The notes beneath the pieces were generated by a model that made no database searches, was not told the DNA's origin, and saw only the letters and a program-made list of their open reading frames with translations. DNA of 64,000 bases from Amoebophrya sp. A120 (Eukaryota; Protista; Dinoflagellata): contig CAJINV010000011.1 in NCBI GenBank assembly GCA_905178155.1, positions 581,982 to 645,981 of the forward strand, given 5' to 3'. Positions 11,992 to 62,300 of this stretch are shown piece after piece. A program made the translations under genes and the position numbers. The first letter of the stretch is position 1. Each line of letters begins with the position of its first letter.

Positions 11992-14900
11992 TCAGCCCCC
12001 CGCACGATGCCAGTCCCGCCACAAGACGGGGACTCCTTCTTCTTGATACGCTCGTTTACTGTGCGACGACGTTTGCAGCTGCGAATGCACTTCCTTCCAT
12101 ACCTGGTGACAGTCGTACCAAAGCTTGTGTTTCAACACTTCCATTTCACTTCGCAGTTCCATGGCCACGTCCACCGGTTTCCCGCCCGCCGCGGGATGGC
12201 ACACCCGCTGCCAAGTCGGAATGACCGCGCGCCGCTGGTAGCCGTAGCAGAACTCCAACAGCTGTAGCACCGCCTCGCACTCGGCCCAGGTGTGGGTGGT
12301 GGCCTCGAACACGATGAGTCGGGGCAGTGCGATCAGCCCCAGATTCTCGAACCGTTCCCACATGAGGGACCGCACGATGCCGTAATCGGCGTATCAAATG
12401 CAAATATCCCTGGACGTCTGGAAGAGTGCAAGATTTGTGACGCAGGTTTTCCATGACCCATGAGGTCTGGAATGCGAGACCCAGCATGACAGATGAGATT
12501 CTTTGAGGTCTCTATCATGCCTTTCTTGCATGAGAAACCCCCTCCCAACTTGGTCAAAACCGGACAGCTTTTGGCACTCACGCAACACAGGCTTTTGCAT
12601 CATTCAGATTTAGCATGACAAGTTCTACTTAATCTTCCAGACATACAGGGATTTTTGCATTTGATACGGCGTTGCAGCAGTCGATCTTAATGGTGTCGAT
12701 GAGCAGAACGCGCTGCAGGGTCTATCGAATGGAAAAATCCCCCCTCCCCATATCAAAACGGAATTTCTGATGCTGGATTTGCGTACACAAATCAGCTTTG
12801 TATTGCAGAGAGGCATTGCGGCCAGGTCCCCAGGCTATGTAGGGGCGTATAGGTCTAGTATTTGTTCAGCATTGCAAACGGCTCCCCTTTAGGCCCAACC
12901 GCATGATAAATTGCTTCCATAATGGGGCGGAAGCTTCTGTCCTTGTCTTCTTGCAATACAAGTGTGATTTGTGACCTCAAATCCGCAACACAAATTTTCG
13001 GAAACATACCTGTTCAATATGGGGAGGGGGGATTTTTCCTTCTGATAGCGTCAGGATCTGGTGCAGGGACTCCACCGGGACCAGTTATCCTGTTTAAAAA
13101 CGCCCCCACCACACAGGTAGTTGTCATGCAATTCTGCATGCTGAAAATGTTTCCCATGCGTAGTCCCATGCGAAGCGCCCACTCGTCGCGTTTTGGAATT
13201 TGTGATGCTCCAACCAGCATAATAGGCCACGTCTGTGATGCTGCTGAAGCAACTAGCCAAACCGAACTACATTACGAGGCCAAACTTGTTATGCGCAATG
13301 CCCAAAGCTAGCTGATTTGTGCAGCAGATTCTCCATCTTGACTCTGGGGTGGAGGGGATGCTTTTATTCAGAATACCAGTTCGCGCTTCATCAGGTGCAG
13401 CAAGCCGTTGGAGGCGAGCACCTGCAGCAGGTAGTCGACCGGCTGCTCTATGCTCGTGCACGCGCACGCCCGCTCGCCCACGAACTGGCAGGTGCGGCAG
13501 TCGTACTGCCGATGTAGCCGGCACACTGTGTTTCCGCAGGTCCGCATGTGCTGCATCAGGTCCGGGTCGAGGCCGTAGAGGTAGCGGTAATGGTTTGCAT
13601 CAAAACTTCTAGTACTGGCCCGAGTGGGTCCTTTACTAGGTTTTCGCCTCTGCCACTCGTCCTTGCGCTTCCAGGCTCTCACCGCAGCAACCTGGATTTC
13701 ATCCGTGGGTTGGATCTTTACAAATATGCACCATAGGCATATTGTTTGACGATCACGACGAAGACGATCAGACATATTTATTATGAACAAGTTGCACAGG
13801 ATGAAAGTCGTGCAACGAAAAATGAAAAACAAGAACCCTCTTCTACTACGTCTCTCTCGCCAGATTCGGTCCGGTAGCTGAGCGGGAGGGGCGCGGCGAG
13901 TAGTTATCGTAAGGGAAAATCCCCCCTCCACATATCGAAAGGGTGCGTCTCAGAAAATTTGCAATGCTGATTTGTGGCCACAGATCGTTTCTGTCTTGCG
14001 CGAACGCAACTCCACAGTCTCCGCCGCGTTCTGCAGGCGGTTTGTGATGCTGGTGGCCCTACAGACTAGACGTTTGCCATGCGCAGCGCCTAGCCCAAAA
14101 CATCTCTACGCAGTCTTGATATAGGCCTGCAGTCCTCTCCAGCAAGACAAATCTGATTTATTGTGTATGCAAATCCAGCATCAGAAACCTCGTTGCGATA
14201 TGGGGAGGGGAAATTTTTCCATTTGATAGCAGGTCCCGCCCCGGCTCGGATACAAACGAGCTTTGTTCCTCCGGAATGTCGGACACCTGCAGCGAGTCGG
14301 GCGTGGCGTCCTCTGCTGAAAAAGTAAGCACCTGTTGCTCGACTGCGCAGGGACCACTTGGCCTTGTGTTCGTGTTCGTCCCGGGGTGCCCACCACTGTG
14401 GGGGTTCCTGGAGGTGGTGCTTGTCGTTTGCTCCTGCTTGATGGCACTGAAAACGTCATAAATTTTCCAACCGTCTACTTCCTCGACAACGAAGCCTGCT
14501 TCCGTCTGGATCTGGCCGCTGCTCCTATTGGTTATGACTTGCACTTGCTCCTCGCTTGCTCCTTCAAAAATATTACCATCGCGTGCCGGTGGTCGTGTCT
14601 CTGTCTTCTTCGCCACATGATCTTCCCGTAGTTCCCGCTGCAAAGGGACCGGAGCCTCCTCGTTGTATACCACTTGTTCATCTCCGATGCTGCTGGTGAC
14701 AAAGACAACATCGTCGTCGTCATAATTTTTATCCTTGCGGCGGTGGGCGGCCACCTGCTCGCCCGCAAGTTCCTCCTCTTCTTCCCACACTTTCCCGGTC
14801 TCCCGGTAGTAGAGCCACGAGAGAAAGTCCGGATTCGTGCAGTCAGAATCGCGGACCAGACGCAACTGCTCTCCCTCGGACTTGTCCGAGAACCATCCCT

Positions 14901-15819
14901 GCTCCCACCTCCAGTACTGCACCACCCAGCTGGCCAGGTACTTTCGGTGCTCCTCGTCCTTGATTTTCCGCTCCCCGCGCCCCGTGAGCCGCGTTTTGAC
15001 TACTTTTTGCAACTTCGTCAGGTTGCCCGACTCTTCGGGCAGCGAGTCGAGGTTCTGTGTCCCAGGAAAGAACTGCAACTGCTTCATCACTCTTCTTTGT
15101 TTTGCAAGATCTGCACCACAACCTTTTTCCACATGACACGGAAACTTTGCCGTGCGCGCTTCCGCCCAAGTGAAATATTAAACACAGTGGAAGATAGATC
15201 AAGTGTTTATTTGCAGGTGTAGCAAGACAAAAAAGTTTTGCGTTTCAAATTTTGCATCACAAGTAAGTTCACAGTGAAACGGTTTCTATTTTCCTGCGAT
15301 ATTCTGCTGGATGGCGTCAATGCTGATCCCCGTGGCGGTCGGCAACCCCAGCCACTCCTCGCAGCCCTTGTATAAACTTGCGCATTTCGAGGAGAGGAAG
15401 TACGCATTGCTGTCCCCGTCCCGGTCAAGGTCCTCAGGGAAGCAGGCCTGCGCGAAGCTCTGGTAGTACGACGCACCCACCTCCACGAAGTCCCGATACT
15501 CCGGGAGAACCACCAACGCGGGGTCGTCGAGATGCTTCCGTACCAAATCCTGAAAAAACAGCGCCACGGCGTTCAGGGTCAGCAGCTTGTACCTGCGGTA
15601 GTCGAGGCTGGTAACCTGGTCGATTTTTGCCAGCTGCTCCAACTGCTTAAACCTTGGAATCACCAAGTAATCCCGCATCGACAAGGTCCCGCGTTTATCC
15701 GCCGGCAGGTCGCGCTTCAAAGGCCGCATGCCCCAAAAGCAGTGGTTCAGCTCGATCACCCGCTCTCGTCTCCGGACGGCGGGAGCTCTTGCTCTTGGTG
15801 GATGCGAGAAGTCCGTCAT
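11992..15819 (-). CDS. FkbM-family (Methyltransf_21)-like SAM-dependent methyltransferase with long insertions
   Basis: N-terminal FVEVGAS motif. Reconstructed C-terminal LLIDTIKIDCCNA|DYGIVRSL...PRLIVFE resembles FkbM IDxxKIDxEGxE...PxIxxE. The junction near 15110-15300 is not resolved. Confidence 0.6.
12392..12666. mobile_element. Introner, family A
   Basis: TIRs; perfect TSD cggcg. Confidence 0.9.
12723..13047. mobile_element. Introner, family D
   Basis: TIRs; flanks gggtc/gcgtc. Confidence 0.9.
13086..13375. mobile_element. Introner, family B (TIR TATCCTGAGTAAAAACGTCCCCACCCC)
   Basis: TIRs; perfect TSD ccagt. Confidence 0.85.
13905..14228. mobile_element. Introner, family D
   Basis: TIRs; flanks gtagt/gcagg. 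Confidence 0.85.
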
Positions 15820-16767
15820 TATCTCGCGGTAGTAAATCTATTTGTCGCGGGATGTATGTACTTATGTAGCCTTTATCGGGTCGACGTGCGGCTTGTGGTG
15901 GCGAAGGCTCGTGGCTGTCTCACATCGTCGTGAACAGCAAATGGCTGTCATGATTTGAAACTCACAGTATGTAAGTACTCTTCACACTTTGCAATTTTAT
16001 ACCTTTTTGATTTTTCAATCCTCAACGCGGCCACCATTTCTATTCTATTCTGAGATTTTGCCAGCAGGCGATGCCCATTTTGACGAAGAATGAACTCGCC
16101 GGAAGATCATGTTGAGTCTGAAGATCATGGTCAGCAAAAGAGACGCGTCTCCCGAATATGAATTTCGAAAAGAAAAACACGTGAGCCAAGAAAAGACAGT
16201 GTCAACGACAAGGAAGAGCCACTACCAAATCGACCGCGGGCAAATAGATACGATCGGATCAGAAGAAGAACGTGAACTTCCAGTACTCGGTCCTCCGTGA
16301 AGATCTTCGTATTGTTTCAAACTCGATAGAATCGTGATCCTTTTTCCTTCATAAGAATCTTCCTTCTTGCTTTTCTTACGACGTTCAGCCCAGAGAGGCG
16401 CAGCAAAAGCGGTGCGAATGTTGAACGGAGGAACATTTTTTTCGCACAGAGGAACAATAGAGTGACGCCGACGACGTGTGGTCGTGTACAAGAACGTAGC
16501 GTCCTGACCGTACTATGTGGTCAACAAGAACCCAGGATTTAGTACTTACTCACGAGTCTCTGCGTTAAGGGCAAGAACGGTCATCTCCGTTCTGTCTGCT
16601 TCTCCGTTTTGTTCTCTTGTTTCGGTTTTAAGTATGTTGTTCAGCAACCAAGCATGTCACAGTCACAGTCTGCATCTTCAAGCCTGCGCAACATGAGAAT
16701 GAGTCACAGTCACTTATATAATGCCGCACTTCTATCCATCTACTTCTCCCAGCGCTGGTACTCCTCC

Positions 16768-19700
16768 TCACCCCAATTGGGGATTGTAGCAGACGTTGTC
16801 CTTGGAATAGAAGCTTCGGTCGGAAGGAACGTGGTCGAACAGGTTCAAAAAGTAGTTTTCCCCCGCCGTCCTCCGGCGTACCACCCGCTTCTGGAAGAAC
16901 ACGCCATCTTTTGACTTGTACACAACGGTGCGCGCCAGGTCGCGGAGAGTGCTTGAGGGCGAGAGCCATAGTGCGTGGAGTTGCTGCTGGTCAATCGTGA
17001 CGTCCCACCGGTCTTTGAGGTACAGCAAAAGTTTCTTTTCCACGTCGCTTAGTGCCTGTGAAAGTGCACAGCGACCCTTCCCCCTCATTTGTATGGCACG
17101 AACGGCAATACAAGCAGCACCGAGAATTATGCAGGTCTTGCATGACAAATCTGCACAGGATTGTAGTGCTATTTGGACTGGCAGAACACTTGTCATGCAA
17201 ACAGTGCTAAGAGGCACAGCCTGGATTGGGCATTTTGCATGACAAATGAGGGGGAGGGGGAGTTGTGCACTGTCATATTGCCTCCAACTCGTCGACGCTG
17301 GTCTCCTCGTCTTCCTGCCGGGCCGTGCCGGACGAGATAGTACTGCTCGCGGCTCCACCCCGGTGGTGCAACGAGACAAAGACGTCCTGCATTTTCGTGT
17401 CCAGGCTCCAGTGCGCACAGTAGGAGAGTTGCTTCTTCGTGCCGGTCTCTCTCGAGAATTGCTTCGCCACCGCCGAAGTGGGAGATAAAGAAGACCCGTC
17501 CTTCGAGAGTTCCTCCGACACAGACGAGTCCCCAGGAGCGGGATCCTTCTGCGGCGGCGGGGGCGCCGCGAACCGAAAGCCGCCGATCTTGTGCCGGATC
17601 GCAAGCAGTTGCGGGTTCGCCACACCGTACAGGTGAATCGTAGTCGTGCCGCTATCGTGTGGTGCTGCTGCTGTTCTTTCGGATTCGGGGGAGGCTTTAA
17701 TATGAAGACTGTTCGAGGACGCTCCTGCGACTGTTCCTGTTGCAACTACATCTACAAGATGATTTGTTATAGCACCTGTGTTCATCCGCACCGCGTCTTG
17801 ACTAGTACATCTCTCATCCAACTCCGACAACGGCAAGGATAAGAGCATGAGGTCCGCTTTCATCGCCGCCAGAAAGGCCTCGCGGTTCTTCAGCTGCCGC
17901 TGGTACACTAAGTGCCCGTCGTAGAAGTAGCTGATTAACAGGAGGAACATCAAGAGGGAGGTTGGCAAAAAAATGGTGAGCACCAACAGCAGGAACAGGA
18001 CGAAAAAAACCAACTGCGTGATCCACCGCACCCGCCCGGTGAACAGGTTTTTGTACTTCTCAAATGCCTCCACGTACGACTCAATCGTGTCCAAATACCC
18101 GACAAAGAACTCGACGAATTGCTCGAACTCCGTTTGCAACGAGTACAGATATGCATTGCAAATATCGTGATCTGGGTCTGATTCCTATAAGGTTGCGATG
18201 CTAATGTTCGAAGGATACTTCGCGAACAGTGTTGCTGAGCCGCGCATGGCAAGTTTCATCATCTGAGCATAGCTATGTCTACACGCTAATCTCATGACAA
18301 TAAGGCGCCTTTTTGCATGACAAAGAAGTGGCACTGTAGCACAACGAGCATGACAGAATTTTCTTTCGTCCCGGCCAAGCATGACAATAAACTCGCCTGC
18401 TTCCCGGGGACCCAGACCACATATTAGCAGTGAATAACAGGGGGATCAATCCAACTCCTGCGGCAGAGGAAGCTGCAGCTCCTGCCACGGCAGATGAACT
18501 ACTCGCGTTCATGAGCTGTCCGCCGAGCTGCTGGTGGGTGATCATCCCCCGTTTGCTTTTTCGCGGAATCCCCAAGCTGTGGGTCGTACCATGCGCTGCC
18601 TGGATAGCTGCGTTCATGATCGGGGAAGCTGGTCGTGGCCCACCGCTTAATGTACTTGTTCCTTTCATCAACATATTCGACGTAGTTGTAGTTCCTGGCA
18701 CGATGTCCAGTAGGGCATCGTTATTTCCATAATTTCCGATTTCATCTCCCTGCGCGGAACGTGGAATTTCATCATCTGGTGCCGGTGATATGTTTAAAGC
18801 TGCTGCGGTTGTTCTCCTCTCTTTCCTCTGCCGCGCACTCAGCAGCGCAGCATTTTCCAAAGCCGCCTGCTGCGCCAGGTCTTGCTGGCTCTGGGAAAAC
18901 AGGTTGCGCATGATCTGCTGCCCATCCTTATCCGGATCCAGTGCGTCCCCAAACGACGCGGCGGACTCGTTCTTCCCCAGCATAATCAACGGGCCTCCCG
19001 TAGTTGAACTACCACCGTCGTGCTGCAGCAGGTTATTATACGACAAGTCGCTGCCCAGGTGCTGGGCCGAGGAGGCGGACGTCATAGACCCAAAGGCTTT
19101 CCCCAGCGGGGACGCGAACTGCGCACTGTCCTCGTCCTCCGCCTCCTCATTCCCGGAGGAGTCAATCGTGCCCAGATCGGGGAGCGACGCAAACATCTCC
19201 GTCCTGTGCCCCGACGCAACATGCCGCCGCGCCAGGTCGTGCGAGGACTCGCGGCCGCCCGTGGTATGATCTACTTCGCTGGTCTTGGACAACTTCGTTA
19301 CTCGACTCATCGTGCTGGCAAGTCCTCTTGCGCTGGGACTACTGCGTTGCTCGACTTGTGTAGTCGACATAGGAAAATAACCCGTACTACCCTGCTGTTG
19401 CGTAGTAGTCGCGCCAGTAGGTCGTCCTCCTGGAGATGATATGGTCGAGACGAGTCTGCTTTCGGCACTGAGCTGCGCAAAAACCGCCGCGTTTTTGGAG
19501 CTGATTGGTGTGGAGGTCGGCGAACTGAAGACCGGACTCGAGGGCTGCTGGTGGATGATGGTGGTCACGTTCGAGCGGGTGAGAAACGGTTCGCTTTTGT
19601 CTCTGTCTGCTCCACCGCCCTTTTCTGGCGAGGAGGTGGAGTCCGAGAGGAACGCGAGATTTTCTTGTTGAGCACGACGGAGATCCTCGTGCACTGCGTC

Positions 19701-22700
19701 CGCCGCGTATTTGTCATGAGCGCCAGGACGAATCCTGGACGAAGAAGCACGACCGTGCACTTGCTTGAACAGCTGCCTCGCGTCGACTAGCGCGTCCTCG
19801 CGACACGCCACCCGGGGCGTCTCCTTCGGTATTGTGAGGCAAAATCCCCCCTCCCCATATTGAAAACGAGATTTGTGATGGTGTATTTGCGTACACGAGT
19901 CGGCTTGTATTGCTAGAAGGCCACGAGACGCAGTTACTCCTTCGTTTGCAGGCAATTTGTAATTACACAAAATAGAACACACTTCAATCCCAAAATAAAT
20001 CTCCTTTCTTTCTTTTTTCCTTGTTTCCTTTTTTCCTTCCAATTCGCACGCAATAATTATCGCTACGGGCCTTGAGGCAATTTGTAATGCTGTTTTCCGC
20101 CTCCACTTTCTTCCTGTGATGCTGAAGACGCAAGGGGTTTCCCAGCACGCCAGCCAGTGCCAGCGCTACAGTCTGCATCTTTTCCCTTTTAGCGTCACAA
20201 CGCGAGTTGTGATCATGAATCATGCTACACAAATCTCCTTTTGAGTACGACGAGGGAGGACTTTTCATCTTGATATTCGGACTCACGTGTTTCTCCGCCT
20301 CGTGCAGTTCCTTCGCGAACCGGTGCTCCATGCGTGTTTTCTTCCCTGCATGTTCCCGGCTGCTGTGGTCGCCCGCGTTCGTAGTGGTACTATACCCAGC
20401 AGCACTCGAGGAGGGCTCATTTCCGATCCGGGTGATTCTCGCGCGGCGCGCGACCCAGTGCCGGCGCCGCACCGCAAAATTCTTGTCCCCGTTGCCACCA
20501 CCAAACGTCGGCACGGGCTGCCAGTCGTCGGCGTGGAAAGATTCCGCGTATCGCCACCCGTCCACGTCTGTGGACACGCCGGGACTGGAGACAATGCTCC
20601 ACTCCCAGAAGACCCGGTAGCGGCCAAAATCGGTGTGTTTTTCCGGCGCAGGTCTTTTCGTGCGCGTGTTCCGCACGTCGCACCACTCCGAGGGGCATCA
20701 AATGCAAAAATGTCTGGGTCTGGAATGTTGCCGGGTTTGTCATGCATATTTTGCTTGATCCAGGATTGTGTGTGATGCATGCCCTACCATCACAGACTTT
20801 TAGAACCCTTCCTGCTGCCGACTCCGCATGACAAATGCCCTCCCCAGGTAGCACAAAATAGACTCCTCTTGCTGGTCATGCAATACAGATTTCTTTACAG
20901 TCCAAAGTTAGCATCACAAGTTCCAACCTTCCAGACCCAGGCATTTTTGCATGTGATAACGGGTCACCGGATTGAAAGCCGCTGAAGGACAGGAGCTGAA
21001 ACTTGCTAAACGCGTTGTTCTATGCATCGCAAATGTGTCTAGGTCTGGAAGATGCAACTTTGTTGTGCAGGCTACGCATGACCCGGAAGGTTTGGAATGC
21101 GTGGTCTAGCATAACAAGCTTTGAGAAGACTCCTCGATACTTATTTCGCATTTAGAAACTAGAACTACGTTGCCTTCGTGTTGCCCAAAGTGGGGGCTTG
21201 TTTTGCTGGTCATGCCATACAGACTTTTCTGTCGATCAAATCTCGCATGACAAACTCGGACTCTTCCAGACCCAGACATATTTGCAGTTGATATGTTCAG
21301 TTCGCGTCGTTGTTCCTCCGGGTCCACCACCTGTTCATCCGTGCTGCCCTTGAAAAAATGCAGCACGGCATTCACGTTGTTCGTCACCAGCACCGCACGG
21401 CGCTCGTTTTCAAAGACCTCCATAGACATCGGAATGTCGTCAAAGTTCGGCTCCTGCCAGGACCGGAGCAGCTGCTCCACCCTTGCACTGGGCAGGGACG
21501 CGGCGTCGCTGTTGGCGGCTCCGCCATCGTTGCTGTCCTCCAAATCGTTCAATCTCTCTTGAAACCCGGGGATCTGGAGCTGGGTGCGCTTCTTACTCTG
21601 TCCCGGCGACTTGTTGGACAGCAGGTCGGTGGTGGTGGCCCGTTTGAACGTTTTGTCACTCGGAATTGCGAGCGCGTAATCCTCGGATAGATCCTCAGCG
21701 AAAACGTGAGCCCTGGCAGTGTCACTCTTGGAAGGCGGACTGAGTAGGGTAACGGGAGTAGTTCTTACCGCTATTGCCGTGGCTTTCATGTGTTTGAATT
21801 CAAAATTACCGCTATCAACATCATAGCTAGTGGCGTCTTCATCCTCTGTAGCTGTGGGGGGGTGGAGGTAGATGCCAGGAGGCGCAGCTTGCCTTGATGC
21901 TCTGTCGTAAAAATTATTGCCTCGCCTTCCGGGGATGTCATCGTCCACGGCCTCTTCGTGACTGGAGGACTCATCTGGGTCGGTTCGCGGCCGGCGCGTG
22001 ACGTCGTTGTAGGTATTATCCTCTTCTTGTAGTCCGGAAGCTGCGGAGGAAGACGCGGATTCCTCATTGCTCTCGTCTACTACTGCTCCGCTGTCGGATG
22101 AAACAAGGAGATCCAATTGTGATCCTTCCCCCGCCCCACCGTGAGCCAGCTCCCCCGCATGATGTTGATCTCCTGGTAGTGAGCTCGCGAGAGTCCTCGA
22201 GGGCGTCGTGCCCGCCTCGGCTGCTTGTTCTGCTCGCTCGGTGTTGATACCCATCATCGTGCCGGGATGAACAAGTGGTTCTTCTTGTTGTGCCAAGATA
22301 TTATAATTGTGTTTCTGAGCTGCAAAACTGAACTCCGTACCAAAGTCCACCAGCTGCTTGCACCTTCGAGTGGAAACTCGGTGCAGCCGAAACCCGGCCC
22401 GGTACCCGTAGTGCAGCAGCAACCTGGTGTTTTTCTGGATCCACGGCTTGTTGTGCAGGCTGACGGCTAGGTGCGAGGCCCAGCCGTACAGCCAGGGCAG
22501 GTAATGGAGAAAGAACACGACGCCCATCTCCAGGCCAAACACGGTCCAGAATAGCACCCGCCGTTGTCCGGGCTGCAGCTCCGCGTTGGCCTGCCGCTGC
22601 TTCAGCACCGTCAAGATTTCCCGCAGGTCCAACGCCAGCGCCTCCCGCGGGCTGCTGCGCACGAACGTTCGAAGGCCGGAAGCGGTGTGCGGCAGGAGCG

Positions 22701-47529: not shown

Positions 47530-47640
47530 CCGGGCGGGGGCCGGACCGGGTGGCAGGGCGGGGGCCGGACCGGGTGGCCGGGCGGGGGCCGGACCGGGTG
47601 GCAGGGCGGGGGGCGGACCGGCGGGGGCAGGACTGGGTGG
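47530..47640. repeat. GC-rich 24-bp tandem repeat (GGGCGGGGGCCGGACCGGGTGGCA)
   Basis: Three to four tandem copies, G-run rich. Confidence 0.85.
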
Positions 47641-49873: not shown

Positions 49874-52800
49874 ATGAATCCGCTGCGGCACTTCCTGGAG
49901 GCGCATCCCAAGTACAACCCCGACCAGACCACGCGCGCCGATGACCTTCGCCAGGCCCAGAACGAGCTGCGACGGTGTTCGCGATGCGCGGACGGCGTGT
50001 CCACCAACCAAGCGCGGCTGCCGAAGCAGGAGGTATGCAATGCCAATGCAAAAGTATCGTACTCGTATAAATGCATTACAAATTTCCTCAGGATGAGAAA
50101 TAAAATTTGTAATGCGAATTTACCTTAAGATGAAAATTTCTAATGCATGACTGCAATACGAGTACGATACTTTTGCACAGGATAGGAGGGACCGTGGGAC
50201 GATGCTGCGTGCATCGACGAGCTGGTGCAGAACATGGACGACCACGTATCAAAAGGAAAAATTCCCCCTCCCCATATCAAAACGAAGTTTCTGATGCTGG
50301 ATTTGCGTACACAAATCAGATTTGTCTTGCTGGAGAGGATTGCAGGCCTATACTAAGCCTGAGTAGAGAGGTTTTCTGCTAGACGCTAAGCATGGCAAAC
50401 GCCTAGTCTGTAGGGCCAACAGCATCACAAACCGCCTGCAGAATGCGGCGGAGCCTGTGTAGTTTCGGCCCTGCAAGACAGAGATGATTTGAGGTCACAA
50501 ATGAGCATTACAAATTTCCTGAGACGTGCCTTTTCGATATGGGGAGGGGGGATTTTTGCTTACGATACCACGTGCGGCTGATGAACCAGAATGCGCACGC
50601 TATCCTGTGTAAAAACGTCACCTCCACCCCAGGGTCAAGCGGAAAGCCTAGCAACGCAGATCCAGAAATTTTGGGTACCAATTTTTTATATCCGTGTAAA
50701 ATAGGAAAATATGCGTGCGCACTAGACAAGTTTGGGCGAGCACTTTGATCTGATGTTTTGCTAGTGCCGCCGCATGAATAGATTATAAAGCGACTCGTGA
50801 AGATTCTAGCCCAGGACAAACTCCCCGGAGACAGCATTGGAAAAGGCGGCCTGTCATGTGGCTGCGCATGAGAAACTTTTTAGGCATGCCGATTTGCATG
50901 ACAGCTCTCGTCGGTTGGGGACTCCGGCGTTTTTCCCCAGCATACACGTCGAATTTACGGAGCCGGAGTTCGCCGTTTGTACAGTCAGGACGACCACTAC
51001 TCGCCGGCTGTACTACAGCCACACGTCGCGGTTTCGCCCGCAGTTCGGGTACTTGCTCCGTTGTTCTCCTGTTTCTTCATCTACTACCGCAGAAGGAGTA
51101 GAACACCGAAAAAGTAGTAGACCCCCGCGGAACGGCGCACTTAGTGCTGCAACTACACATGATAGTAGTACTGCTGCTTCCAACAAGAAGCACCGCCTCG
51201 GGTGTCTCGGGGTCTCCTCCGATTACATCTACCTGCTTAACTACGAGACGTGTTTCCGCCCGCGGAACTTGGTGGTGGGCTACACGGGGGAAGAGAAGCG
51301 GGAAACGTGTCAAGCCCGGAAGCTGGCGTATCACAGTGAAAAATGCCCCCACCCCCAAAGTTGCAATAATTTGTGATGCGAAGTTTCCAAGTGAAAACTT
51401 TTTGTCATGCCTGAAAGGAGTGTAAATCTTTCTGATTCAGATTCTAGGCGTAAATAGCATCGTTCGGATGACAAGCGACGCTCTTGCTGGGATCTTTTGC
51501 AATGCAAATTTTTGCTATTCACGAAGATGGAAAGTCTGTGACGCTGATAGACGCAAAAGGGCGAGTGTTTCAGGTGGAAAGGTTTGCAATACGAATGCTC
51601 CCAAGTTCGGGGGTGGGGGCGTTTTTTATGGTAATATGGCGAAGGGGAAATTCGGCGACGGGCTGAACAGCTCCATCAACCGGCTTTTGTCGTCCTCCTG
51701 TAAGGAAATGAAGCGGTCCGTGGAAATTTTCACGTGCGGTTGGCGCTACACGTTTTTCTTCAGCGACAAAGCGAGTCCGACGGGGGTCGAGACTTTAGCC
51801 TACACGGTGGAGCCTTTTGATATGTATAACACACCACCACCAGCTGCGGGGACCACGCGGGGGAGTAGTAGTAGTGTTTGCGGGATGAACAACAATCGAA
51901 ATAGCTGTGGTTCTTTCCCACCGGAGCTTGATTTCGATGCGAACAGCGATACTTTAGTCCGTATCTACGCCCCCCAGTTCCAGTTCGACTACAGTCGGTA
52001 TCTGTTCTTCCTGCGTTCTGATAAGCACGGCAAAAGTAGAAATCCGATACTAGTATGAATTGCATCTTCACAGACTTTCTCTCAGCATGAAAAATTGAAT
52101 TTGCAATGCTGATTAGCGTGGTACAGAGGTAGATCTGTCTTGCTGATGCATGCTCGCGATTACTACAAATGCGATGCTTTTGGAGTGCATATCTGACCAG
52201 GTGTTGCAGCTCGTTGTAAAAAAGCCGGAGATGATATTGAATCATGCTAATTCATCTCGGGCTAGCGGAAAGCAAATTCTCTTGGATGTTGCCAACAAGA
52301 AGGCCGACCACTCCCACCACGACGAAGAGGTTTTTGACGCAGCCCCGCCCAGAATGCAGGTGGAGGTGCTTGCCAGCGTCGAAACCCGCAACCGCATGTA
52401 CGTGAAGGGTATGGTCGTGATCGATCGGAACCGCCGGAACGGCACCGGGCCCCGCCTGCGTAACCTCATGTTCGGGTACAACCTGGTTGATTTCGAGATG
52501 CGCTACCGCGACCGACAGGAGAGCCTGTCGTTGCAAGATCAGCAGGAGGCCGTGACGCTCGGGTGGCACGCGCTGCGAGACAACAAACCGGCCATGAGCA
52601 ATTTGTTTGAAGCGCTGCTGGGGCATGAACTCTGTTTCGAGCTCCAGGTGCTGTCCGAAAACGTCTGCGAGGAGACGAAGGAGATCTGTGTATCCTAAGG
52701 AAAAACATCCCCACCCGAGAGTCAAGATGGGGATCTCGCAACACAAGCCAAGAAGTTTTGGGAGTCACGCATGACAAGTTCCTCTCTGTATTGTAGTACA

Positions 52801-55800
52801 GTTTAGCAAGCGCAGCCGCATCACAAAGCCATCTGCTCATCCTCTTTGCAGCATTACAGAGTCCAAAACACGATTGCAAACGCCTCTCATGGGGATGCGC
52901 GTTACAAATTTTCCTGTGACTGCAAATCTGCATGACAACTATGGGGTTGGAATATAGTGGCCGGGAGATGATGGTGATGGCACTTTGGTGTCCGCCTGAC
53001 CCACCCGCCCTGCGTCTCAAGCCATCTGCGGCCATGGCACAAAGGGGGGGCAAAGTGCGTCGCATTTTGTTTAGCATGACAACTATGGGGTGGGGACGTT
53101 TTTACTCAGGATACTGTGTTGCGATGAAGGCAGCGTTTGCGGAGAAGTACGGGGTAATATGCGAAGAAAAAAGTGTTACAGTTACTTACAAACTCTGATG
53201 CAAGACCAGCAAGAGAGATAACCTCTGTCGTGCAGGAAATGCTTTCCAGCCTCATTTCATGCGTGTTCTTTTCCCTTATCGTCTGCGCATTACAAGTTTT
53301 CTTCGCTACGCGGTAGAGCGACTTCGTGATGCTGAAATTGCAACGAATGTGGAACTGTAACACTTTTTTCCTGTGATAGGTAAATGCAAGACCCTACTGC
53401 GATGAAAAGACGAAGGCGGCGATCGAGAAATTACAGCTGCTGCCGCAGAAGGTATAAAAGGGATCATATATTTTTTCAGTGCTGAATGAAGATGCTAGGT
53501 ATAAAAGCTATGCTCTAATTTCTGCTATTCAAAATTTTTTAAAAATCTCACTGCAGTGTTTGCGAATCAATGCTATTTTTTTACCTGCACAAAAAGAAAC
53601 CCAGGTTCCCCTCCCTCTCATGCGCCTTCTCCAGAACCTCTTTGTCTCCCCGGAGCGCGAGCTGGAGACCCAAAATTCCGCCAAGCTCATCAAGTCCCGG
53701 CACGTGCGGCACTCGCAGCGGGACAAGACCTATCGCGGTCTGTACAGCGCGCTGCAAGCCGCGGTGGAATCGTGCGTGGTCGCTCCGGAAGACGATGTGA
53801 TTGACGACCCGATCGAGTCCAGACAAAATCGGCTCCCGCAACTCCACCTCCGCGACGGGAAGCACATCCAACTCTCCGCCTGCGTGCGAGGCGAGGAGCG
53901 GACGGAGTTTTGGCTTTCTGGATTTCTGAAATACCCGTATTTAAACCGGGGGTACAAACTGGACGAGGAAAAACTATGCATTGCAAAGGTATGATCGTAC
54001 TAGTATAAATCGCATGACAAATTTCCTCAGCGTGAGAAATGTAATGCGGTTTTCACTTGACAAAAAAATTTGTAATGCATGACAGCGATTGCTACGAGTG
54101 CGATACTTTTGCACAGGATAAGAGCCGTGGATCAACAATTGTCCGGTGTTTTGGGCGTGCCGGGACACCCGGAACGTGCCCCACACGAACGGCAGGTTCG
54201 AATACTTCCTCTACTTTGACGGCCACCGGTACTGCATCCAAGCGGCGAACAAACTCCACGACGTGCAGGCGGCGCGGCAAACGTACCCCCTAGCGGAACT
54301 GGTCACCACCGATCTCCCCTGGTGGGCGCCCCGCACGCAGTGGCGGGAGCTTCTGGGGGAAAGGTTGCCGACGAAGAAGGTGGAGGCGAAGGATTTCGAT
54401 GCAAAGCCGGTGGAGGTCACGGCGACAGCAGTTCTTGGAGGAAGACAAAATGCTGAAAGAACACAAAAATCTTCACACAGAACCACCGGCTCCTGTACAA
54501 CACAACAACACGATAGTAGGTTCGATGTTTACGTCAACTGGGACTGCTTTCTCGAAGTTCTGGAGGCGGAAGAGGAGGAAAATTTCGAATTGAACAAAGA
54601 CCTGGCATGCATCCAGCTCGCGGCCGCCTCTGATTTTGCGAAGGACGTTCTGCAGAAGGTACGGGACGGCTTGGGGAAACTACGCACGATCGCGTTAGCG
54701 CAACACGACTGGGACGAGATCTCGAAAAGGGCGCAGGACCGCCTCATCAAAATGTTCATCCCGATGGACGAACAAAATAAATCGCGAGTAGCAGCGGACG
54801 AGGTTCATCTTGCACCAGAAATAATAAACATTAATGAAAATAAGAACAAAAACCGCAGCACAAGCACAACTTCAAGCTGCCTCGAGGACCCTGCGTTAAT
54901 ATTACTGCAGAAGTCCACCTTGGCCAAGTTCCGTTCCACCGACGTTCAGCAGCAGCTCGCGAACTTCGTCGCCGAGCTATTGAGAGGAAAAATCCCCCCT
55001 CCCCATATCGAAAAGGTATGTTTCCGAAAATTTGTCTTGCTGATTTGAGACCACAAATCACGTTTGTCTTGCAAGAAGACAACTCCACAGGCTCTGCCGC
55101 ATCATGCAGGCGGTTTGTGATGCTGTTGGGCCTACACCATAGACGTTTCTCATGCTAAGCGCCTAGGCCACAACTTCTCTACTCAGGCTTGGCAGGAGCC
55201 TGCAGTCCTCTACTGCAAGACACACGTGATTCGTGTACGCAAATTCAGCATCAGAAACTTCCGTTTGATATGGGAAGGGGGGATTTTTCCTTGTGATGCG
55301 AGCAGCTTGCGCGGAAAAAGCTGTGGCTGGACCGGGGAAGCAATACAGATGAAGAAGATGATCCGGATAAAATGCTACTCGGCGACGCGTATGGATTGCA
55401 AATATGTCTGGGTCTGGAAGAGTGGAACTTGTAATGCTGTCTGCGGATTCTAAAAATATCTGTGTTGCATGAGCAGCAAGAGGACTCAGCTTTTGGCACG
55501 CGGAGAGGGCGTGTCTCATGCGTAATTAGCATCAAGAGGCTCTCAAAATCAAAAAATCTGTGTTGCTAGCACCAGCATCACAGACCTCACGGGTCATGCA
55601 AAATGTGCATGACAAGCCCCGACTCTTCCAGACCCAGACATTTTTGCAGTTGATACCGCGGTCTTGCGGTTCTTCACGGCGCTGCAGTGCTTGAAGTCGA
55701 AGCATAGTGTCCACGAAACGGAGGCGATCGACCAGTATCTGTGGAGCGAGGAGTGTCTCGGGAAGAGCTTGTACAAGGACCTCCGGTACACCATTGGGCA

Positions 55801-58234
55801 CAGTTTGGTGCAGTCGGAACAGAAGTACACCACGCTGACAAAGTTTATCGCAAGCAAAAAGTGTTACTGTTACACGCATAGCCTTCTACTATGCAGGGAA
55901 AGCAAGACAGACAACCTCTGTCATGCCGGATATGCATACACACCTTGTTTCGTACGTGTTTTATTCCGGTAGGATTTCTGCAACGCAAGTTTTCTGCCTC
56001 AGGCAGAGAACAAATTTGTGTTGCTGAATTGGCAACAAATGTGTAACTGTCAACACTTTTTCCGTGTGACAAAGTTTCTCGCGACCTTGCTGGAGAGGGA
56101 AAAGCTCCGGCTGCCCCCTGCCTTAGCGGATGTGGCCGCGGGGGTGAAGACGACCGAGGAGTTGCCGTTGCCCACCGTTCTATTACACTGCATCAACGCG
56201 GCACACTTCACGAGCTTGTTGGAACGGAAGAAGGGCTTCGGGAAGGAGAAAAGGGGATTGCTGGACCTCGATTATGGCCGCCGCGCGGGGGAGAAGAAAG
56301 ACGAAGAAATATTAAACGACGTCCTCCTTGGTGCATCGGAACCAGCTGCAAATGCAGGGTCGTTGAAAACAAGCACGCGGTCAAACTCAACATCCGTGAG
56401 GAGCAATAAGCTACTTGGAGAGCCGCGCGGTGGAGCAGGTCCTCCGGCTGCGAGTGCATCGACAAGTGTGGTTGAGCGACGTGGTGAACAAAAATCCGCA
56501 AGAAGCTGCTGCCCTGAGCATGATGGTGAATCGAATGAAGGCATCGTGAAGGGCGCGCTGGAGCTGGCAACGAAGATAAAGACTACGAATCACAATGCTA
56601 GTACGTGGAATTATAACGCGCAAGCAGGAACTACAGTGGCAAGCTACACGGAAGACGCAGTACAAAATTCGGCGCAACATCAAGAAGTAGACTCCACCCG
56701 CCGCCGCCGCACGTCGAGCTTGGAGGCAGCGGAGAAAAGCATACTCTCTAGCAGCGTGGGGACCACGCCGGTGAAAAAGCGCAATGCTTCTACTGCCGAA
56801 GAGGAAAAAATCAAGCGCGATGAGCAGAACGAAAGCGCGGCTGGAAGCGCTGGCGGAGCTGCTGCTTCGAGCTCAAGCAAGTGGCTGGCGAGTGTGCAGA
56901 ACCGGATGAGCAATAAGAGAAAAAGATCTTTGTCCAGCGAAAGCGAGAAGAGCTTCCAGCCGAAGGAACTTTCGTCGGCACTTCAGACGAAGGTTTTGGG
57001 TGCGCGGAAGTCCTCCCCGAAGTTCACCATTGAAGAAGGTCAGTCCTATCCCAGTGCAGCTTCGGAAAGCGACAGAGAAATAAAGCCAGTCAAGGAAAAG
57101 AAGAAAGTGAAATATTATGACAAATCCAAGAAAGAAAAAAAGAAGAAAAAAGCACGGAAGGAAAGAAAAGCGAACAGCGATGGTGAAAAAAGTGACGTCC
57201 TCGAGGAGGTCTCTTTTGACCAACGGCCCGGGCATCTCAAGCTCATGAAGGGCGTAACCCTCAAAGAGCAGAGAGGGAAAAAGATAGAGGAGCAGCGTGA
57301 GGGTGGTGCCCAATCGAAATCCACCTCCGCTACGGAAGGTGGTGCTAAAGCCTATCCCTTTTTCGCCGGTGCAGCAGCTGCAGCAAGAACGACGACTAAA
57401 TCTAATGTTGTCCTCCCGAAGAAGATTTCCCCCCGGCGACAGGCGCAATACGACCGCGACTACCAGGAATTACTACACCTCCGGGAGCAGAACCGCTGTG
57501 AGAATGCGGGCACCCGCCGCTTGGACGAGATTTACCAGGAAGAGAAGGAGGCGCGACAAAGGTTAGAATTGCAGAAGAAGGAAGAAGAGGCACAGAGGCG
57601 GAAGGCAGCACAGGAAGAGAAGTTGAAAAAACTGAGGTACGTCGAAAAGCTGCAGCAGAGCTACCAAAATAACGCGGGCGATGGGAAAATAAATGGGCTG
57701 CTGCTGGAAGAAGCTGGCGAGGCGAGATGTATTTCGCAGCGCAACCCCGGGATGCTGACGCAGAGGAACCCGGCGTCTCTCTCGCAGAGAATTGCAAATC
57801 CGCTGTTGTTAACCACGCCGTCGCCAGAAGTGAATGCAAAAAACACTACTGCGTGTTCTTCTACCGGGGTGGATTTCTATCGGAAATTCTGCCGCGGTGC
57901 GGCAGTGGATTATGGATTGCAAAAATGTCTGGGTGTGGATGATTGCAACTTGTCATGCTAAATCTGAATCAGGCAAAAAACTGTGTCGCATGGTTGCCAA
58001 AAGTTGTGCACCTCTGATCTAATCGAGAGGCAGTTTCTCATGCAGGATAGGCATTCGAAAGGTCCCACAGAATCTGTCATGCTATGTCCTACACACCAGA
58101 CCTCATGGGTCACGGAGAACCTGCATGACAAATCTGGCAATCTTCCAGACCCAGACATTTTTGCAAACCATATGGATCTGAAACCTGCAAAAGGGAAATG
58201 CATCCTCAAGCCAGGACCGAACGGCAGGAGGTAA
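49874..58234 (+). CDS. Large hypothetical protein with a Lys/Glu-rich C-terminal region; 12 introners plus one GT-AG intron
   Basis: Junctions checked are in frame (PKQE|GPWD, DH|VRL, HA|EFT, KLA|KGK, RSD|QVL, IC|VAMK, EEK|PWINNC, AVD|LKP...RR*). No recognisable domain; start uncertain. Confidence 0.7.
50034..50184. mobile_element. Introner, family F
   Basis: TIRs; perfect TSD ggagg. Confidence 0.9.
50247..50567. mobile_element. Introner, family D
   Basis: TIRs; perfect TSD ccacg. Confidence 0.9.
50601..50944. mobile_element. Introner, family B
   Basis: TIRs; flanks cacgc/cacgt. Confidence 0.85.
51329..51636. mobile_element. Introner, family B
   Basis: TIRs; perfect TSD tggcg. Confidence 0.85.
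52022..52191. mobile_element. Introner, family F
   Basis: TIRs; perfect TSD tctga. Confidence 0.85.
52691..53113. mobile_element. Introner, family B, with an internal insertion
   Basis: TIRs; perfect TSD ctgtg. Confidence 0.9.
53158..53378. mobile_element. Introner, family E
   Basis: TIRs; perfect TSD ggtaa. Confidence 0.9.
53975..54120. mobile_element. Introner, family F
   Basis: TIRs; flanks aaaac/agagc. Confidence 0.85.
54978..55298. mobile_element. Introner, family D
   Basis: TIRs; right end TG; perfect TSD cgagc. Confidence 0.9.
55390..55655. mobile_element. Introner, family A
   Basis: TIRs; flanks acgcg/ccgcg. Confidence 0.9.
55846..56071. mobile_element. Introner, family E
   Basis: TIRs; right end CA; perfect TSD aagtt. 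Confidence 0.9.
57911..58172. mobile_element. Introner, family A
   Basis: TIRs; perfect TSD tggat. Confidence 0.9.
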
Positions 58235-59357
58235 TTTTTCGAAAAATTGACGTGTGGCTGGTATTGTTTACATTGGAATCACCTTGCACAGAATAAAATT
58301 ACTATACTAGCGACATTTTTTCACATGATCTACGCGTGACGTGTGACATAAACGATGACAGCAAGTACATGCCGTGTAATTGTGCAGCATGGGTGCATTG
58401 TCCCTATCTGATTTGATAATCAGATCACGCTAATACGCCCTGACGCATCATTCATAAGTAAACATATTTTGCAAAGAGCGGTTTCCTAAACTCTGCATCA
58501 CGAGGGGACGACAGTTGCAATGGATCGCACCTGAAGGACCAGGTTTTATTTCTTCCAAGGATCAAACATAATTTCGGAGCCCTTGCTTCCGCAAATATTT
58601 ATCGTGTTGCAAAATTTGATTTTGTTTTTGTCCTACTGGTTTTTTTTGATACGTAAAAAACAGCTGAATTTCTTGAAGCGTAGTATAATCTGTCGATTCC
58701 ATGACCCGATAGAAAAAAGTTTATCCAGTCGGTGCCATACGTCTTCCAAACCGAAAGTAGATGAACAGAGTGAACACAAACTTCGGTCGTGTGAAACACG
58801 CTCAAATAAGGCCGCCATTCGGTAACATGAGAGCCCACTGTTTCTTTTGTCTTTGCAAATCGTTTCTGTGCGTCGCACTGACGCAGCAAACCGTTTTCCA
58901 TGTCGTTCAAAAATTACTTCCAGGGAACCCCTTTTTGTGGACATTTTTCTTGTACCCTCCCAGTCAGATGAAAATTGAACAAATGCATGCGCGTTCATAG
59001 TGGCACATTTGCTTTGCTCTTGCCAAATCGCATTTACGGTTTCCAGTGACGCGACCTACCATATTACACCAATAGATCCCGCCGCGGTCGTTCTTTTTTT
59101 TTTGCGACAATAAGAAAGCGCGCAGTGTATGTGCCAGGCAATAACGGATTTTAAGCTCGCTCTGTAGAGGAATGTGTGACGTTGAAATTATGCCGTTGAG
59201 CCGCGCTCCCCCGGATCGCGTAACTACACTCGCGCGCCGCCGAGCTGCTCCCGTATAGGAAGCGGCGCCACAGCGACCATTGGTTTTCAGGATAAAAAAG
59301 CCATACTTCGGGAACTGCGGTATACTCGTTCGTACTAGTTCGCGGCCGTGTGACATA

Positions 59358-62300
59358 ATGTCTACTCCGGAGATCATTGGCCCCGCCGCTGGTGCTACAA
59401 CCCGGTCACAGGAGAACGAGGACTCGAAAATCCTCTGTGAGCCGGTTCCTGACGAGGAGGATGTGTCCACCGAAGTCCCCTCCCTGGTCCCCGACGAGGA
59501 CGAGCTTCCGCCGCTGCGGCGACGCACCAGCGAGTTTTCGCGGTCGATGTCCAAGGATTTTCCGGCGGTCACCGTGCATATTTTACCGGAGAAAGCGCAG
59601 ATATTTTCCCTCTTCGAGTGCCACGAGGTGTACACTATGGGGCGGGACATGCTAAACGAGCAGGCAGACAGAAGAGATAAAAAACCGAGTTCAACAACAA
59701 CATCTGGGCGGTCATCCTCGTCTTCCAAAGGCATAAGAACAACTTTGCAGCAACTCGGGAATTATCCTGTGCAAAAGTATCGTATTCGTATTGCAGTCAT
59801 GCATTACAAATCTTTTTCTTAGGGTAAATCCGCATTACAAATTTTATTTCTCATGCTGAGGAAATTTGTAATGCATTTATACGAGTGCGATACTTTTGGA
59901 GTTCATAGAAATCAGCTTTTAAGCCTGAGCAGGAGCGCCATGGAGCACCGGAGTAAGCTTCGGAATCTCTCTTATCAAATGTAAAAATGTCTGGGTCTGG
60001 AAGATTGCAACTTGTCATGCTGAATCTGGATCATGCAAAAATTTGTGTTGCATGATTACCAAAAGATGGCCACTTTTGACCAGTTTGGCAGCGAGTTTCT
60101 CATGCAGAATAGGCATGATAGACACCTCACAGCGTTTGTCATGCTAGGTGCTGCATTCCAGGCCCCATGGGTCATGGAAAAACTGCATCACAAATCTTGC
60201 ATTCTTCCAGACCCAGACATTTTTACAGTTGATATCTCTAGTCCCGATCAAAAGACCAGAGATAGCGCATCAAGCAGTACCGCCCTAAATTCAAGTACTG
60301 TCCCCGATGGACCCGGCTCCGGCACGACAAGCAGCAGTACGACCGCTACTACAGCTTCCACCTCGTTTCAGTTTCTGCACTACGCGCACTATTTCCGGGC
60401 GCATTTTCTCTCCTGTTCCGCGGTGTCCCACCCGTGCAAAACTATCATCACCGCGTTTCTGATCCTCCTCTACACGGTCATCGCCTACATTCCGTTCGGC
60501 GTGGGGAAAAAGTTCGTGACCACGATGACGCCCTACACGCTCCCCCCGATGATGGGATCGCTGGACGCGCGGATGTACGCATTCTGCAAATATGTCTTGG
60601 TCGGGAAGATGAGTGCGATACTTGTCCTATGCTGGTGTGGCATGACGCTGCGCTCTGTATTGCGTGGCCACGATGAAGAGCTCCTCCCGTCTGTCATGTA
60701 AGAACGCTGTTTCTCATGCGGGCTACGCAAGAACACAGAGCCACGGAAAAACCTGTCTTGCTTCGCGGTGCATTGCAGTGTGCTATGCTATTCGCTGACA
60801 TGCATTACAACTTTCCAGGCCCGGACATATTTGCACTCGATAGGATGTGCCGGGTGCGGGCGGAGTTGCTGAAGAACGCCCACGGGACGGTGTTGGACTT
60901 CGGCGCGGGGTCCGGTGTGTACATGAAGTACTGTTTTCCGAAAACGGAGAAAAACCAGTTCGGGCAGGACGGGAACAAGGCGAATTTCGTCCACAAGTAC
61001 ATCGCGCTCGAACCCAATTTGGAAATCGCCGCGCAGTTGAAGAGGCAGTCGGAGAAACTGATCCGCGAGTGCGAGGAGCTCCTGGGGCCGCAACGAGCGG
61101 TGTCCATGCCGGCGAAGGCGGTGTCCAGCATCCCGCCGGCTGGAAAAAGACTCGGAGTTGTCGCAGACGATATTTCGACCGGGGTTGCGAAAGTGGACAC
61201 CATCACATCATCTTCACCACCATCAGAGTTAGAAAGGGCAGCAGAAGGTGAAGGAGCGCATCTTCATGAGAAAAATAAATTTTCCATTCCACCGCGCAAG
61301 AGCTCGGACCCGGAGCTGTTTGGAGGTTCATTCGGAAGTCATTTTTTACCCTCGAGAAGAACCCTGCTGTCCGAAACGGAAACTCCCTCGTCCCCTACCT
61401 CTTCCGCCTGTTCACCGAAGCTGCCCAACGCGACGGCGCTCCGCCGCACCATCACCGAGAGCACCACGGCGAGCAGCACGGATTTTTCGCTTCCGAAACT
61501 CCAGAAACCCCGGCCAAGCTCATTCTCGGTTCAAACCGAGGATTTGTTTCCTACAACGCACGATGTCAGCGACGTAGAGGAGGAGGAGCCACTTTTGTTC
61601 CGGACGGATAGCGTTTCCTCGTGGAATAAAGTCACTAGTGGCCGGGGTGGCAGAAGTAGTCCACCCGCAGGAGCAGCTCCTGCAAGCCCGATCCAAGATC
61701 AGTACGGCATTCAAAAATCTAACAATCCGATGAAGCTCGAGCGGACGACGAGTGCTGTGAGTTCGTCGTCCACGACGATTCGAAGACGCGTTTCCACAAC
61801 GTCCAGCCGGGCGACGGCACCAGAAGACTACGCTCTGGACGACGAAATGGTGGCCGGCGGCGTGGACGAGAAGGAGGACTTCTACCCGCGAAAAGAACAA
61901 CATCAGCTCGATTTATTTGAAAACAGCAACAATGATGAAAACGTGCAAAACGACAAGAATTATGATCCGAGGGCGTACAATAGGAGTATGTTTGAGGAAA
62001 ATAAGAATATCAAATCCAACTCCAACACCTTCACTACCTCCCTCGGCACCTTTCCGCGCCGGAGGATGCTGAAACACATCCCGGAGGTCGAAGTTGTCAC
62101 GGAATACCTGCAAGAGTACGCGAAGCGGATCCCGGAGAACAGTATCGACTACATTTTACTGGGCAACGCGCTCTGCATGGTAGACGACGTGGAGAAAATT
62201 TTGCAAGATTTGAAACGGTTGCTCAAACCGGAGACGGGCCGGATTTTCTTCTCCGAGCACGTGGCGGCGCTCCCGCGGAACTCCTGGCGCCGGAAGCGCC

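Follow-up and report, generated by a model that had tools for sequence, protein, structure and literature searches.

Introner elements in a 64,000-nucleotide stretch of Amoebophrya sp. A120 are removed in both orientations together with five flanking nucleotides

The stretch analysed here, referred to as the window, comprises 64,000 nucleotides (nt) of the dinoflagellate Amoebophrya sp. A120 and is densely populated with transposon-like elements. An inverted-end scan, a duplication filter (at least 3 of 5 flanking bases matching), homology searches and an end profile gave 62 elements of the form TAT...ATA, which occupy 19,495 bases, or 30% of the window. Most are 110-450 nt long, and two copies are 2.2 kilobases (kb). 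Both ends are alike, with TAT, five loose bases, G at position 9 and AAA at positions 11-13 (position counts, 59 copies). The 5-nt flanking duplication is perfect in 40 of 61 elements and matches at four or more bases in 53 of 61 (the 62nd element, counted later, is also perfect); it stops at base 5, the sixth base matching in only 12/59 and 18/59 cases. The elements are non-autonomous DNA transposon copies with inverted TAT...ATA ends and a 5-nt target duplication. Exactly the element plus 5 nt is removed from RNA-type contigs, in either element orientation and at any target.

The end motif is that described for the introner elements of A120 (Farhat 2021, PMC7789003), so the system is already published and the window elements are those introner elements. 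That paper gives an inverted repeat of TAT, seven looser bases and AAA, non-canonical ends, support from RNA sequencing and a proposed hairpin; the borders are direct repeats of 3-5 nt, 5 bp in Fig. S19. The organism is the same, exons of the window being identical to A120 proteins (a query with one exon matched a single protein, at 100% identity), and there is no difference in kind: the window elements likewise have the TAT/AAA repeat and a 5-nt direct repeat, fall into families, and are removed from RNA without GT-AG ends.

The RNA data were unstranded contigs from four runs (X1-X4) of one sample, their RNA nature being a tool's guess, and were compared over 7300-24300 (16 elements) and 43000-62900 (22 elements). 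Host strands were assigned from restored open reading frames (ORFs), Pfam matches in three genes and a minus-strand GT-AG intron. Two host genes, their canonical introns and copies of two element families, D and F, are listed first. Orientations are given in transcript sense.

11995-15837, minus strand: host gene; 5 elements, one canonical intron and 734 open codons; the 3 exons scanned gave no Pfam match
13692-13849, minus strand: canonical GT-AG intron (GTAGTA...CCAG); CT..AC joint in 4/4 runs, joining the exons around 12723 and 13905 and fixing the strand
49820-58231, plus strand: host gene; 12 elements, one canonical intron and 1680 open codons, of which residues 249-1680 equal the A120 protein P0001
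53452-53604, plus strand: canonical GT-AG intron (GTATAA...CCAG); P0001 identical across it; X1 record 3 starts at 53603
4843-5162, minus strand: family D, orientation B by interior alignment; frame restored; outside the RNA-compared stretches
12723-13047, minus strand: family D, orientation B; duplication GACGC/GACCC (sense); RNA joint 330 = 325+5 in 4/4 runs; upstream copy kept through base 4
13905-14228, minus strand: family D, orientation A (opposite to 12723, same gene); RNA joint 329 = 324+5 in 4/4 runs; upstream copy kept through base 4
19830-20275, minus strand: family D, diverged and longer, orientation B; RNA joint 451 = 446+5 in 3/4 runs
50247-50567, plus strand: family D, orientation A; perfect duplication, frame restored
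54978-55298, plus strand: family D, orientation B, 3' end decayed to ATG; spacing in X1 record 5 fits removal with 5 nt; protein P0001
7994-8137, minus strand: family F, TATCCTG; RNA joint 149 = 144+5 in 2/4 runs
50034-50184, plus strand: family F, TATGCA; duplication GGAGG, giving a GT-AG intron if the intron takes 1 nt before and 4 nt after the element (1+4 register)
52022-52191, plus strand: family F, TATGCA type, overlooked by the first scan; X1 record 2 contiguous across it (401/402), 175 = 170+5; DNA-like X5 record 8 reads through
53975-54120, plus strand: family F, TATGCA; duplication AAAAC/AGAGC; X1 record 4 starts at 54125, bases 1-4 of the downstream copy thus being missing; P0001 carries the upstream-copy residue
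59763-59907, plus strand: family F, TATCCTG; frame restored

With both terminal 25 nt trimmed, the interiors sort into 8 families of 2-18 copies, with zero inconsistent orientation edges. The letters D and F were assigned in an initial annotation of the sequence, and A, C and E in this analysis. That annotation had named eight elements, the D copies at 12723, 13905, 50247 and 54978 and the F copies at 7994, 50034, 53975 and 59763; all lie where it put them, and alignment of the families with a count of orientations found every orientation it gave to be correct, as well as the F starts, TATCCTG at 7994 and 59763 and TATGCA at 50034 and 53975. The D pair in the minus-strand gene is opposite (interior alignment score 189 opposite, 38 in the same sense), as is that in the plus-strand gene (334 against 84); the shuffled maximum was 33. 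Five D copies align end to end with a mean column identity of 82%. Their ends, described as distinguishable, are so only approximately by the motifs quoted, since the copy at 4843 has CATATCGAAA at each end, and it is the interior that fixes orientation. Both orientations of one family occur within one gene in seven gene-family combinations.

That 12723 and 13905 share a gene is borne out by RNA contigs, which join the two through the GT-AG intron 13849-13692; a single X2 contig of 2160 nt spans 11847-15647 across both. Their assignment to two genes, considered on account of their different frames, was rejected for this reason. The common gene proposed for 50247 and 54978 rests on the 1680-codon open frame left after removing the elements and one GT-AG intron: P0001, which crosses 7 elements, starts downstream of 50247.

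Fifteen of the 17 joints in 7300-24300 were displayed. Fourteen skip an element, each by its length plus 5 nt, and the fifteenth is the CT..AC intron 13692-13849. In 43000-62900 the piece table shows 5 of the 22 elements removed and none retained, the others not being displayed: the X1 records number contiguously across 52022 and 57911, and 54978, 55390 and 55846 are removed together (266 nt expected, 266 seen). Nineteen elements in total are thus shown removed; for the eight D and F copies named above, RNA or annotation evidence covers all except 50034, 50247 and 59763. The copies of other families and their evidence are as follows.

9155-9406, minus strand: family A, majority orientation; RNA joint 257 = 252+5
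9582-9854, minus strand: family A, minority orientation, same gene as 9155; RNA joint 278 = 273+5 in 2/4 runs
12392-12666, minus strand: family A, majority orientation; RNA joint 280 = 275+5
18150-18436, minus strand: family A; RNA joint 292 = 287+5
20696-20958, minus strand: family A, 3' end decayed to ATG; RNA joint 268 = 263+5; upstream copy kept through base 4
21021-21293, minus strand: family A; RNA joint 278 = 273+5
55390-55655, plus strand: family A; spacing in X1 record 5; P0001
57911-58172, plus strand: family A; X1 record 5 contiguous across it (2511/2512)
10110-10320, minus strand: family E; RNA joint 216 = 211+5
55846-56071, plus strand: family E, opposite to 10110 in transcript sense, 3' end decayed to ACA; spacing in X1 record 5; P0001
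13086-13375, minus strand: family C; RNA joint 295 = 290+5
31907-32195, minus strand: family C, opposite to 13086 in transcript sense; the annotated partial protein P0002 skips 294 = 289+5
15058-15301, minus strand: singleton, weak terminal stem (predicted pairing 0.29), 3' end ACA; RNA joint 249 = 244+5 in 4/4 runs
17057-17277, minus strand: family 5, the one copy that limits the register from above, downstream base 5 being retained; a GC-AG cut fits as well; RNA joint 226 = 221+5 in 3/4 runs

In RNA contigs both orientations of families A, D, E and F are missing; for family C removal is seen one way in RNA contigs and the other way in the annotated protein P0002. Splicing competence is therefore independent of orientation, as had been proposed, and in the RNA contigs neither orientation was systematically unspliced. 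The proposed 5-nt overhang rule, by which the element and 5 nt are lost and the target is restored, holds at 14 of 14 displayed element joints.

The reading frames agree. Taking out each element plus 5 nt (or the same-frame +2 or +8) gave a longest ORF of about 1810 amino acids, compared with at most 790 in the other frames, and 53 of 60 elements were crossed by an ORF of at least 200 amino acids (41-47 in the other frames); the test is sensitive only to the removed length modulo 3. One may ask whether the joined forms are instead element-free DNA, from presence/absence alleles or somatic excision, or else arose at the 5-nt repeats as artefacts of template switching. Template switching is favoured by short direct repeats beside hairpins, and the RNA identity of X1-X4 is the tool's guess noted above. 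However, the GT-AG intron is absent from the same contigs, and in the DNA-like run X5 element 52022 and the canonical intron at 53452 are both still present. The duplicate that is kept follows transcript direction, and reading frames need the removal, among them an ORF for a conserved aldehyde dehydrogenase that contains 7 elements. We regard this explanation as highly improbable. Two raw RNA runs, X8 and X9, were set aside as not being transcripts of this strain (32 and 3 reads matched, mostly at 90-95% identity).

Both orientations could be spliced unequally well, the interior mattering and selection or insertion bias skewing orientation, an explanation that is not exclusive of the others. 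The counts in transcript sense, from which element 40639 was excluded, are 14:4 for family A, 6:2 for F, 3:5 for C, 2:4 for D, 3:3 for E, 1:4 for family 5, and 1:1 and 0:2 for two pairs. The skews in A (p = 0.03 alone) and family 5 lean that way, the 8 families jointly giving p = 0.065 before 24278 was added, and in Polarella glacialis all the classes that function both ways favour one orientation (bioRxiv 2020.10.14.339549). Families C, D and E show no such pattern, the minority-orientation copies 9582, 7994 and 13905 are removed, and the skew is not significant after correction; unequal splicing is considered doubtful.

The position of the cuts was read from diverged duplications and is expressed as k, the number of bases taken from the upstream duplicate. 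Elements 12723, 13905 and 20696 require k of at least 4, as does 53975 on the other strand, and 17057 requires k of at most 4; k = 4 is the sole value fitting all 14 joints. Whichever way the element points, and on either genome strand, the message retains the upstream duplicate through base 4. Since 12723 and 13905 point in opposite directions, it is the transcript rather than the element that governs the register, and this directly supports the proposal that the signals lie in the symmetric terminal inverted repeats (TIRs). We consider k = 4, the 1+4 register, likely.

Under a 0+5 register the intron would start at the repeat itself (UA at +1/+2) and take the whole downstream duplicate, and 17057 would be a copy converted to GC-AG. 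This is compatible with either splicing machine discussed below. A value of k = 5 is allowed by 13 of the 14 joints, and 17057 does have GC at k = 1 and a CAG acceptor from its decayed end. That decayed end, the fit of a GC-AG cut and its being the sole such copy make 17057 a weak upper bound, and at three base-5 mismatches (33167, 34708 and 50601) the direction of mutation favours k = 5 by 2.4:1; both count against the 1+4 register. No annotated protein spanning a base-5 mismatch was found among the longer proteins at 33167, which P0002 and P0003 do not span, or for the exon beside 50601. The 0+5 register requires a special case for the only informative copy, and the 9 predominant non-canonical A120 motifs in Table S4 of PMC7789003 all start N-T (GT, CT, AT, TT) and none T-A, with free 3' ends; these starts, however, may depend on aligner placement of ambiguous junctions. 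On balance 0+5 appears unlikely.

With 1+4 preferred, the conserved bases can be placed in the intron. By transcript, the terminal TA is intact at the 5' end in 61 of 61 elements and at the 3' end in 55 of 61 (p = 0.03 in a post hoc sign test). The six deviations track gene strand, with left ends affected in minus-strand genes (4) and right ends in plus-strand genes (2), and on the sense strand comprise three A-to-G and three T-to-C changes; being of two opposite mutation types, they are not explained by a single strand-biased mutation. Five of the six deviant copies (15058, 17057, 20696, 54978 and 55846) are among those shown removed. Although the ends are symmetric, then, the repeats are seemingly used asymmetrically, the 5' TA being kept and the 3' TA drifting. 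If k = 4, TA falls at intron +2/+3, as in the window's four canonical or predicted canonical donors, all of which start GTA, and the introns have U at +2 and a purine at +3 in 61 of 61 cases. In strain A25 the repeats are reported to start TTA-purine-purine, with TT the predominant intron start (PMC7789003); on our own reading, U and A would occupy +2 and +3 there too.

The target need supply neither GT nor AG, nor any other particular base. No base bias against exon background was found at any of the 5 target positions (p 0.38-0.99, n = 61). In the 1+4 register GT starts occur in 20 of 61 elements, AG ends in 5 and both in 1, and any GT/GC-AG placement is possible in 4 of 61. The terminal stem is predicted to be alike on both strands (mean -98 and -96 kcal/mol, pairing 0.76 and 0.74, n = 58), with positions 4-8 often unpaired. 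A branch point in the 3' TTGAT (A at -3 kept in 60/61) was tried and is not supported: 44183 lacks it, and the difference between 5' and 3' ends is 3 to 1.

These features suggest, with somewhat better than even confidence, a relaxed spliceosome without U1 that draws its signals solely from the inverted ends, reads N-UAU as the donor and sets the acceptor by distance, in the 1+4 geometry. PMC7789003 reports U2, U4, U5, U6 and 83 of 89 spliceosomal proteins in A120, U1 not being found. The intron would take a single nucleotide ahead of the first repeat and four beyond the second, 1+4 making 5. Every intron would then begin N-U-A-U-(C/G), the UA of the repeat standing for the UA of GUA in canonical donors. 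The far repeat would set the acceptor by distance instead of AG, either by pairing with the first repeat or as a bound motif (a U-tract, then AUA), and with the same motif at both ends the donor would be whichever end is transcribed first. Mobilisation might be by an integrase-like DDE transposase elsewhere in the genome, a suggestion we make with little confidence. Because an NNAGG target gives a GT-AG intron in the 1+4 register (50034), one guess is that the system started at such targets and later lost its need for G and AG. The wider claim, put forward tentatively, is that the A120 spliceosome may have been rewired to a transposon repeat, dispensing with U1, the +1 G and the 3' AG: UA would be the donor core, the acceptor would lie 4 nt past the far repeat, and repeat-bounded inserts of up to at least 2.2 kb with a 5-nt duplication would vanish from messenger RNA at any site and in either direction.

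Several observations weigh against a spliceosomal reading of this kind. The removal was seen in four runs of one sample, to which the data behind the annotated proteins may be related. The TA asymmetry comes from 6 events and a test chosen post hoc. G is not enriched at the proposed +1 (20/61; background 33%), and AG ends are few (5/61) though the spliceosome normally needs AG. Mismatches in the stem show no excess of G-U over A-C (49:40, p = 0.40), predicted pairing is 0.5 or less in 10 of 58 stems, the spliced 15058 included, and the predicted hairpin is not demonstrated to matter; with no G-U preference and positions 4-8 often unpaired, a bound motif is as plausible as a hairpin.

The absence of any G+1 or AG preference, and the report that U1 was not found (PMC7789003), would suit a dedicated non-spliceosomal nuclease and ligase, such as has been proposed for euglenid non-conventional introns, that cuts at set distances from a terminal stem which it recognises; the 5-nt rule and independence of orientation would hold just as well. 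Euglena introns offer a parallel, with a paired motif, fixed spacers of N3 and N5-6, and circles (PMC12501133, PMC11282704). Yet the constrained bases match donor U+2/A+3 if the register is 1+4, the stem lacks a G-U bias, and a Euglena-like purine rule at the exon start is missing (33/59 purines). Adaptation of a spliceosome to the ends of transposons is possible, as Fritillaria shows (PMC11282704). We think such a nuclease rather unlikely.

Other systems are comparable with the window elements. Polarella glacialis has introner-like elements, transposons with TIRs and target-site duplications (TSDs) that make introns, several classes in either orientation, and Aureococcus is cited there as another case (bioRxiv 2020.10.14.339549). 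Introns arise from both orientations there as in window families A, D, E and F, and Polarella class 12, with its 5-nt TSD NNAGG, has the 1+4 geometry that is likely for the window elements. Those introns, however, need GT/GC/GA and AG from element or target, whereas only 1 of 61 window elements is GT-AG in the 1+4 register and the target is unbiased. Euglenid non-conventional introns, which probably derive from MITEs (miniature transposable elements with inverted repeats), resemble the window elements in lacking GT-AG and in having an inverted terminal motif at fixed spacers and repeat-like borders; their motif is CDG/CHG with spacers of 3 and 5-6 and an exon-start purine, whereas the window elements have TAT/ATA, spacers of either 1 and 4 or 0 and 5, and lack a purine rule (PMC12501133, PMC11282704). 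The MITE-derived, non-canonical introns of Fritillaria borealis, handled by an adapted spliceosome, are likewise comparable, but have fixed AG-AC/AG-AT ends and a TAC target, whereas the ends vary freely in the window (review PMC11282704). IS3EU/GingerRoot, of the integrase-like DDE group, shares TA..TA termini but usually has a 6-bp TSD instead of 5 bp; this comparison is by termini and TSD (PMC10045372).

No transposase was recognised in the window, the two ORFs of the 24278 element having no Pfam match and those of the 1027 element being inspected by eye only. Both belong to the 2.2-kb copies, the interiors of which contain tandem repeats:

1027-3217, minus strand: family 5 element, 2191 nt; lies inside an ORF and has a perfect duplication; the frame is restored when it is taken out with 5 nt; predicted intron
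24278-26543, minus strand: family 5 element, 2266 nt; duplication 3/5; opposite in orientation to the short family members; two ORFs become one of 2593 codons on its removal; predicted intron

Within the latter, 24752-26319 is a 1568-nt unit with long inverted ends of its own (TATAGTTGGGGCT...) and arrays of short GTTC-type repeats; it lacks a 5-nt duplication and is perhaps a nested transposon of a different kind. Elements 19830-20275 and 52691-53113 are about 120-140 nt longer than the rest of their families; 52691-53113 has the subterminal motif in a second copy, and the longer 19830 is nonetheless removed exactly. Candidate 25986-26261 was discarded as part of a tandem array; the relaxed candidates 16126, 38067 and 58600 were set aside for another reason, shuffled sequence yielding 0-8 such pairs. 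Gene spans (from our own ORFs, one of them generous) hold 59 of 61 elements but 64% of other bases; either insertion prefers genes, or recognisable ends survive only in spliced copies. The sole element without an assigned gene, 40639-40868, has intact ends and a duplication differing at 2/5.

Pfam matches in three host genes are to aldehyde dehydrogenase, RING and methyltransferase. The aldehyde dehydrogenase gene lies on the minus strand at about 46511-42000; in it, CAGGA, the upstream duplicate of element 42668-42956, holds the acceptor of a predicted GT-AG intron. An exon piece of 1-2 nt is left, and the element would need to be removed first, or in a single complex with that intron, which is predicted at 42954-43515 and filled with a 13-nt tandem repeat. 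With elements removed, 16771-30610 on the minus strand forms a single 2755-codon ORF, for which the public model is a 245-amino-acid partial; it is possibly continued by a 1288-codon ORF at 36514-30772 via a GT-AG intron. Positions 1-288 and 6524-6811 are direct repeats, 98% identical, which may reflect a local gene duplication truncated where the window begins, and 47672-48581 is a degenerate tandem array of 31-nt units in a region where neither elements nor long ORFs occur.

The initial annotation concluded that any exonic insertion would be neutral and that this explains the scale of the invasion. The data support tolerance of insertions anywhere in an exon, and as the message is restored the main cost of insertion is removed. 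Neutrality itself does not follow: family A stands at 14:4 and the 5' TA seems constrained, and asymmetric use of the repeats means that each insertion adds sites that must not mutate. The explanation for the scale is unsupported as worded, the contigs giving no per-orientation efficiency.

Removal of some 40,000 introns without GT-AG was stated as open in the A120 genome paper (PMC7789003). In the parts of it consulted the splice position is variable or unknown and the repeats variable, 'orientation' there concerns genes, and no fixed 5-nt duplication, transcript-polar register or polar TA conservation was found, though Figures S19-S25 may already show the register. A literature search at the level of titles and the opening of abstracts, outside subscription papers, the journal version of Roy 2023 and PNAS datasets, found no A120 orientation count or fixed register. 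The elements and both-orientation introners are already known, and the cutting rule was not found in print in the literature searched. A fixed transcript-polar register reduces hundreds of reported splice-site motifs to one rule, their variety coming from random target bases. It also gives exact positions for lariat mapping and reporter mutagenesis, and so makes element splicing directly testable. If the rule is true, it would offer a practical way to correct the A120 gene models, of which those in the window are fragmentary (P0001 begins late and P0002 is partial), and the A120 introners would be a limiting case of intron gain from transposons, with neither a target nor an orientation filter.

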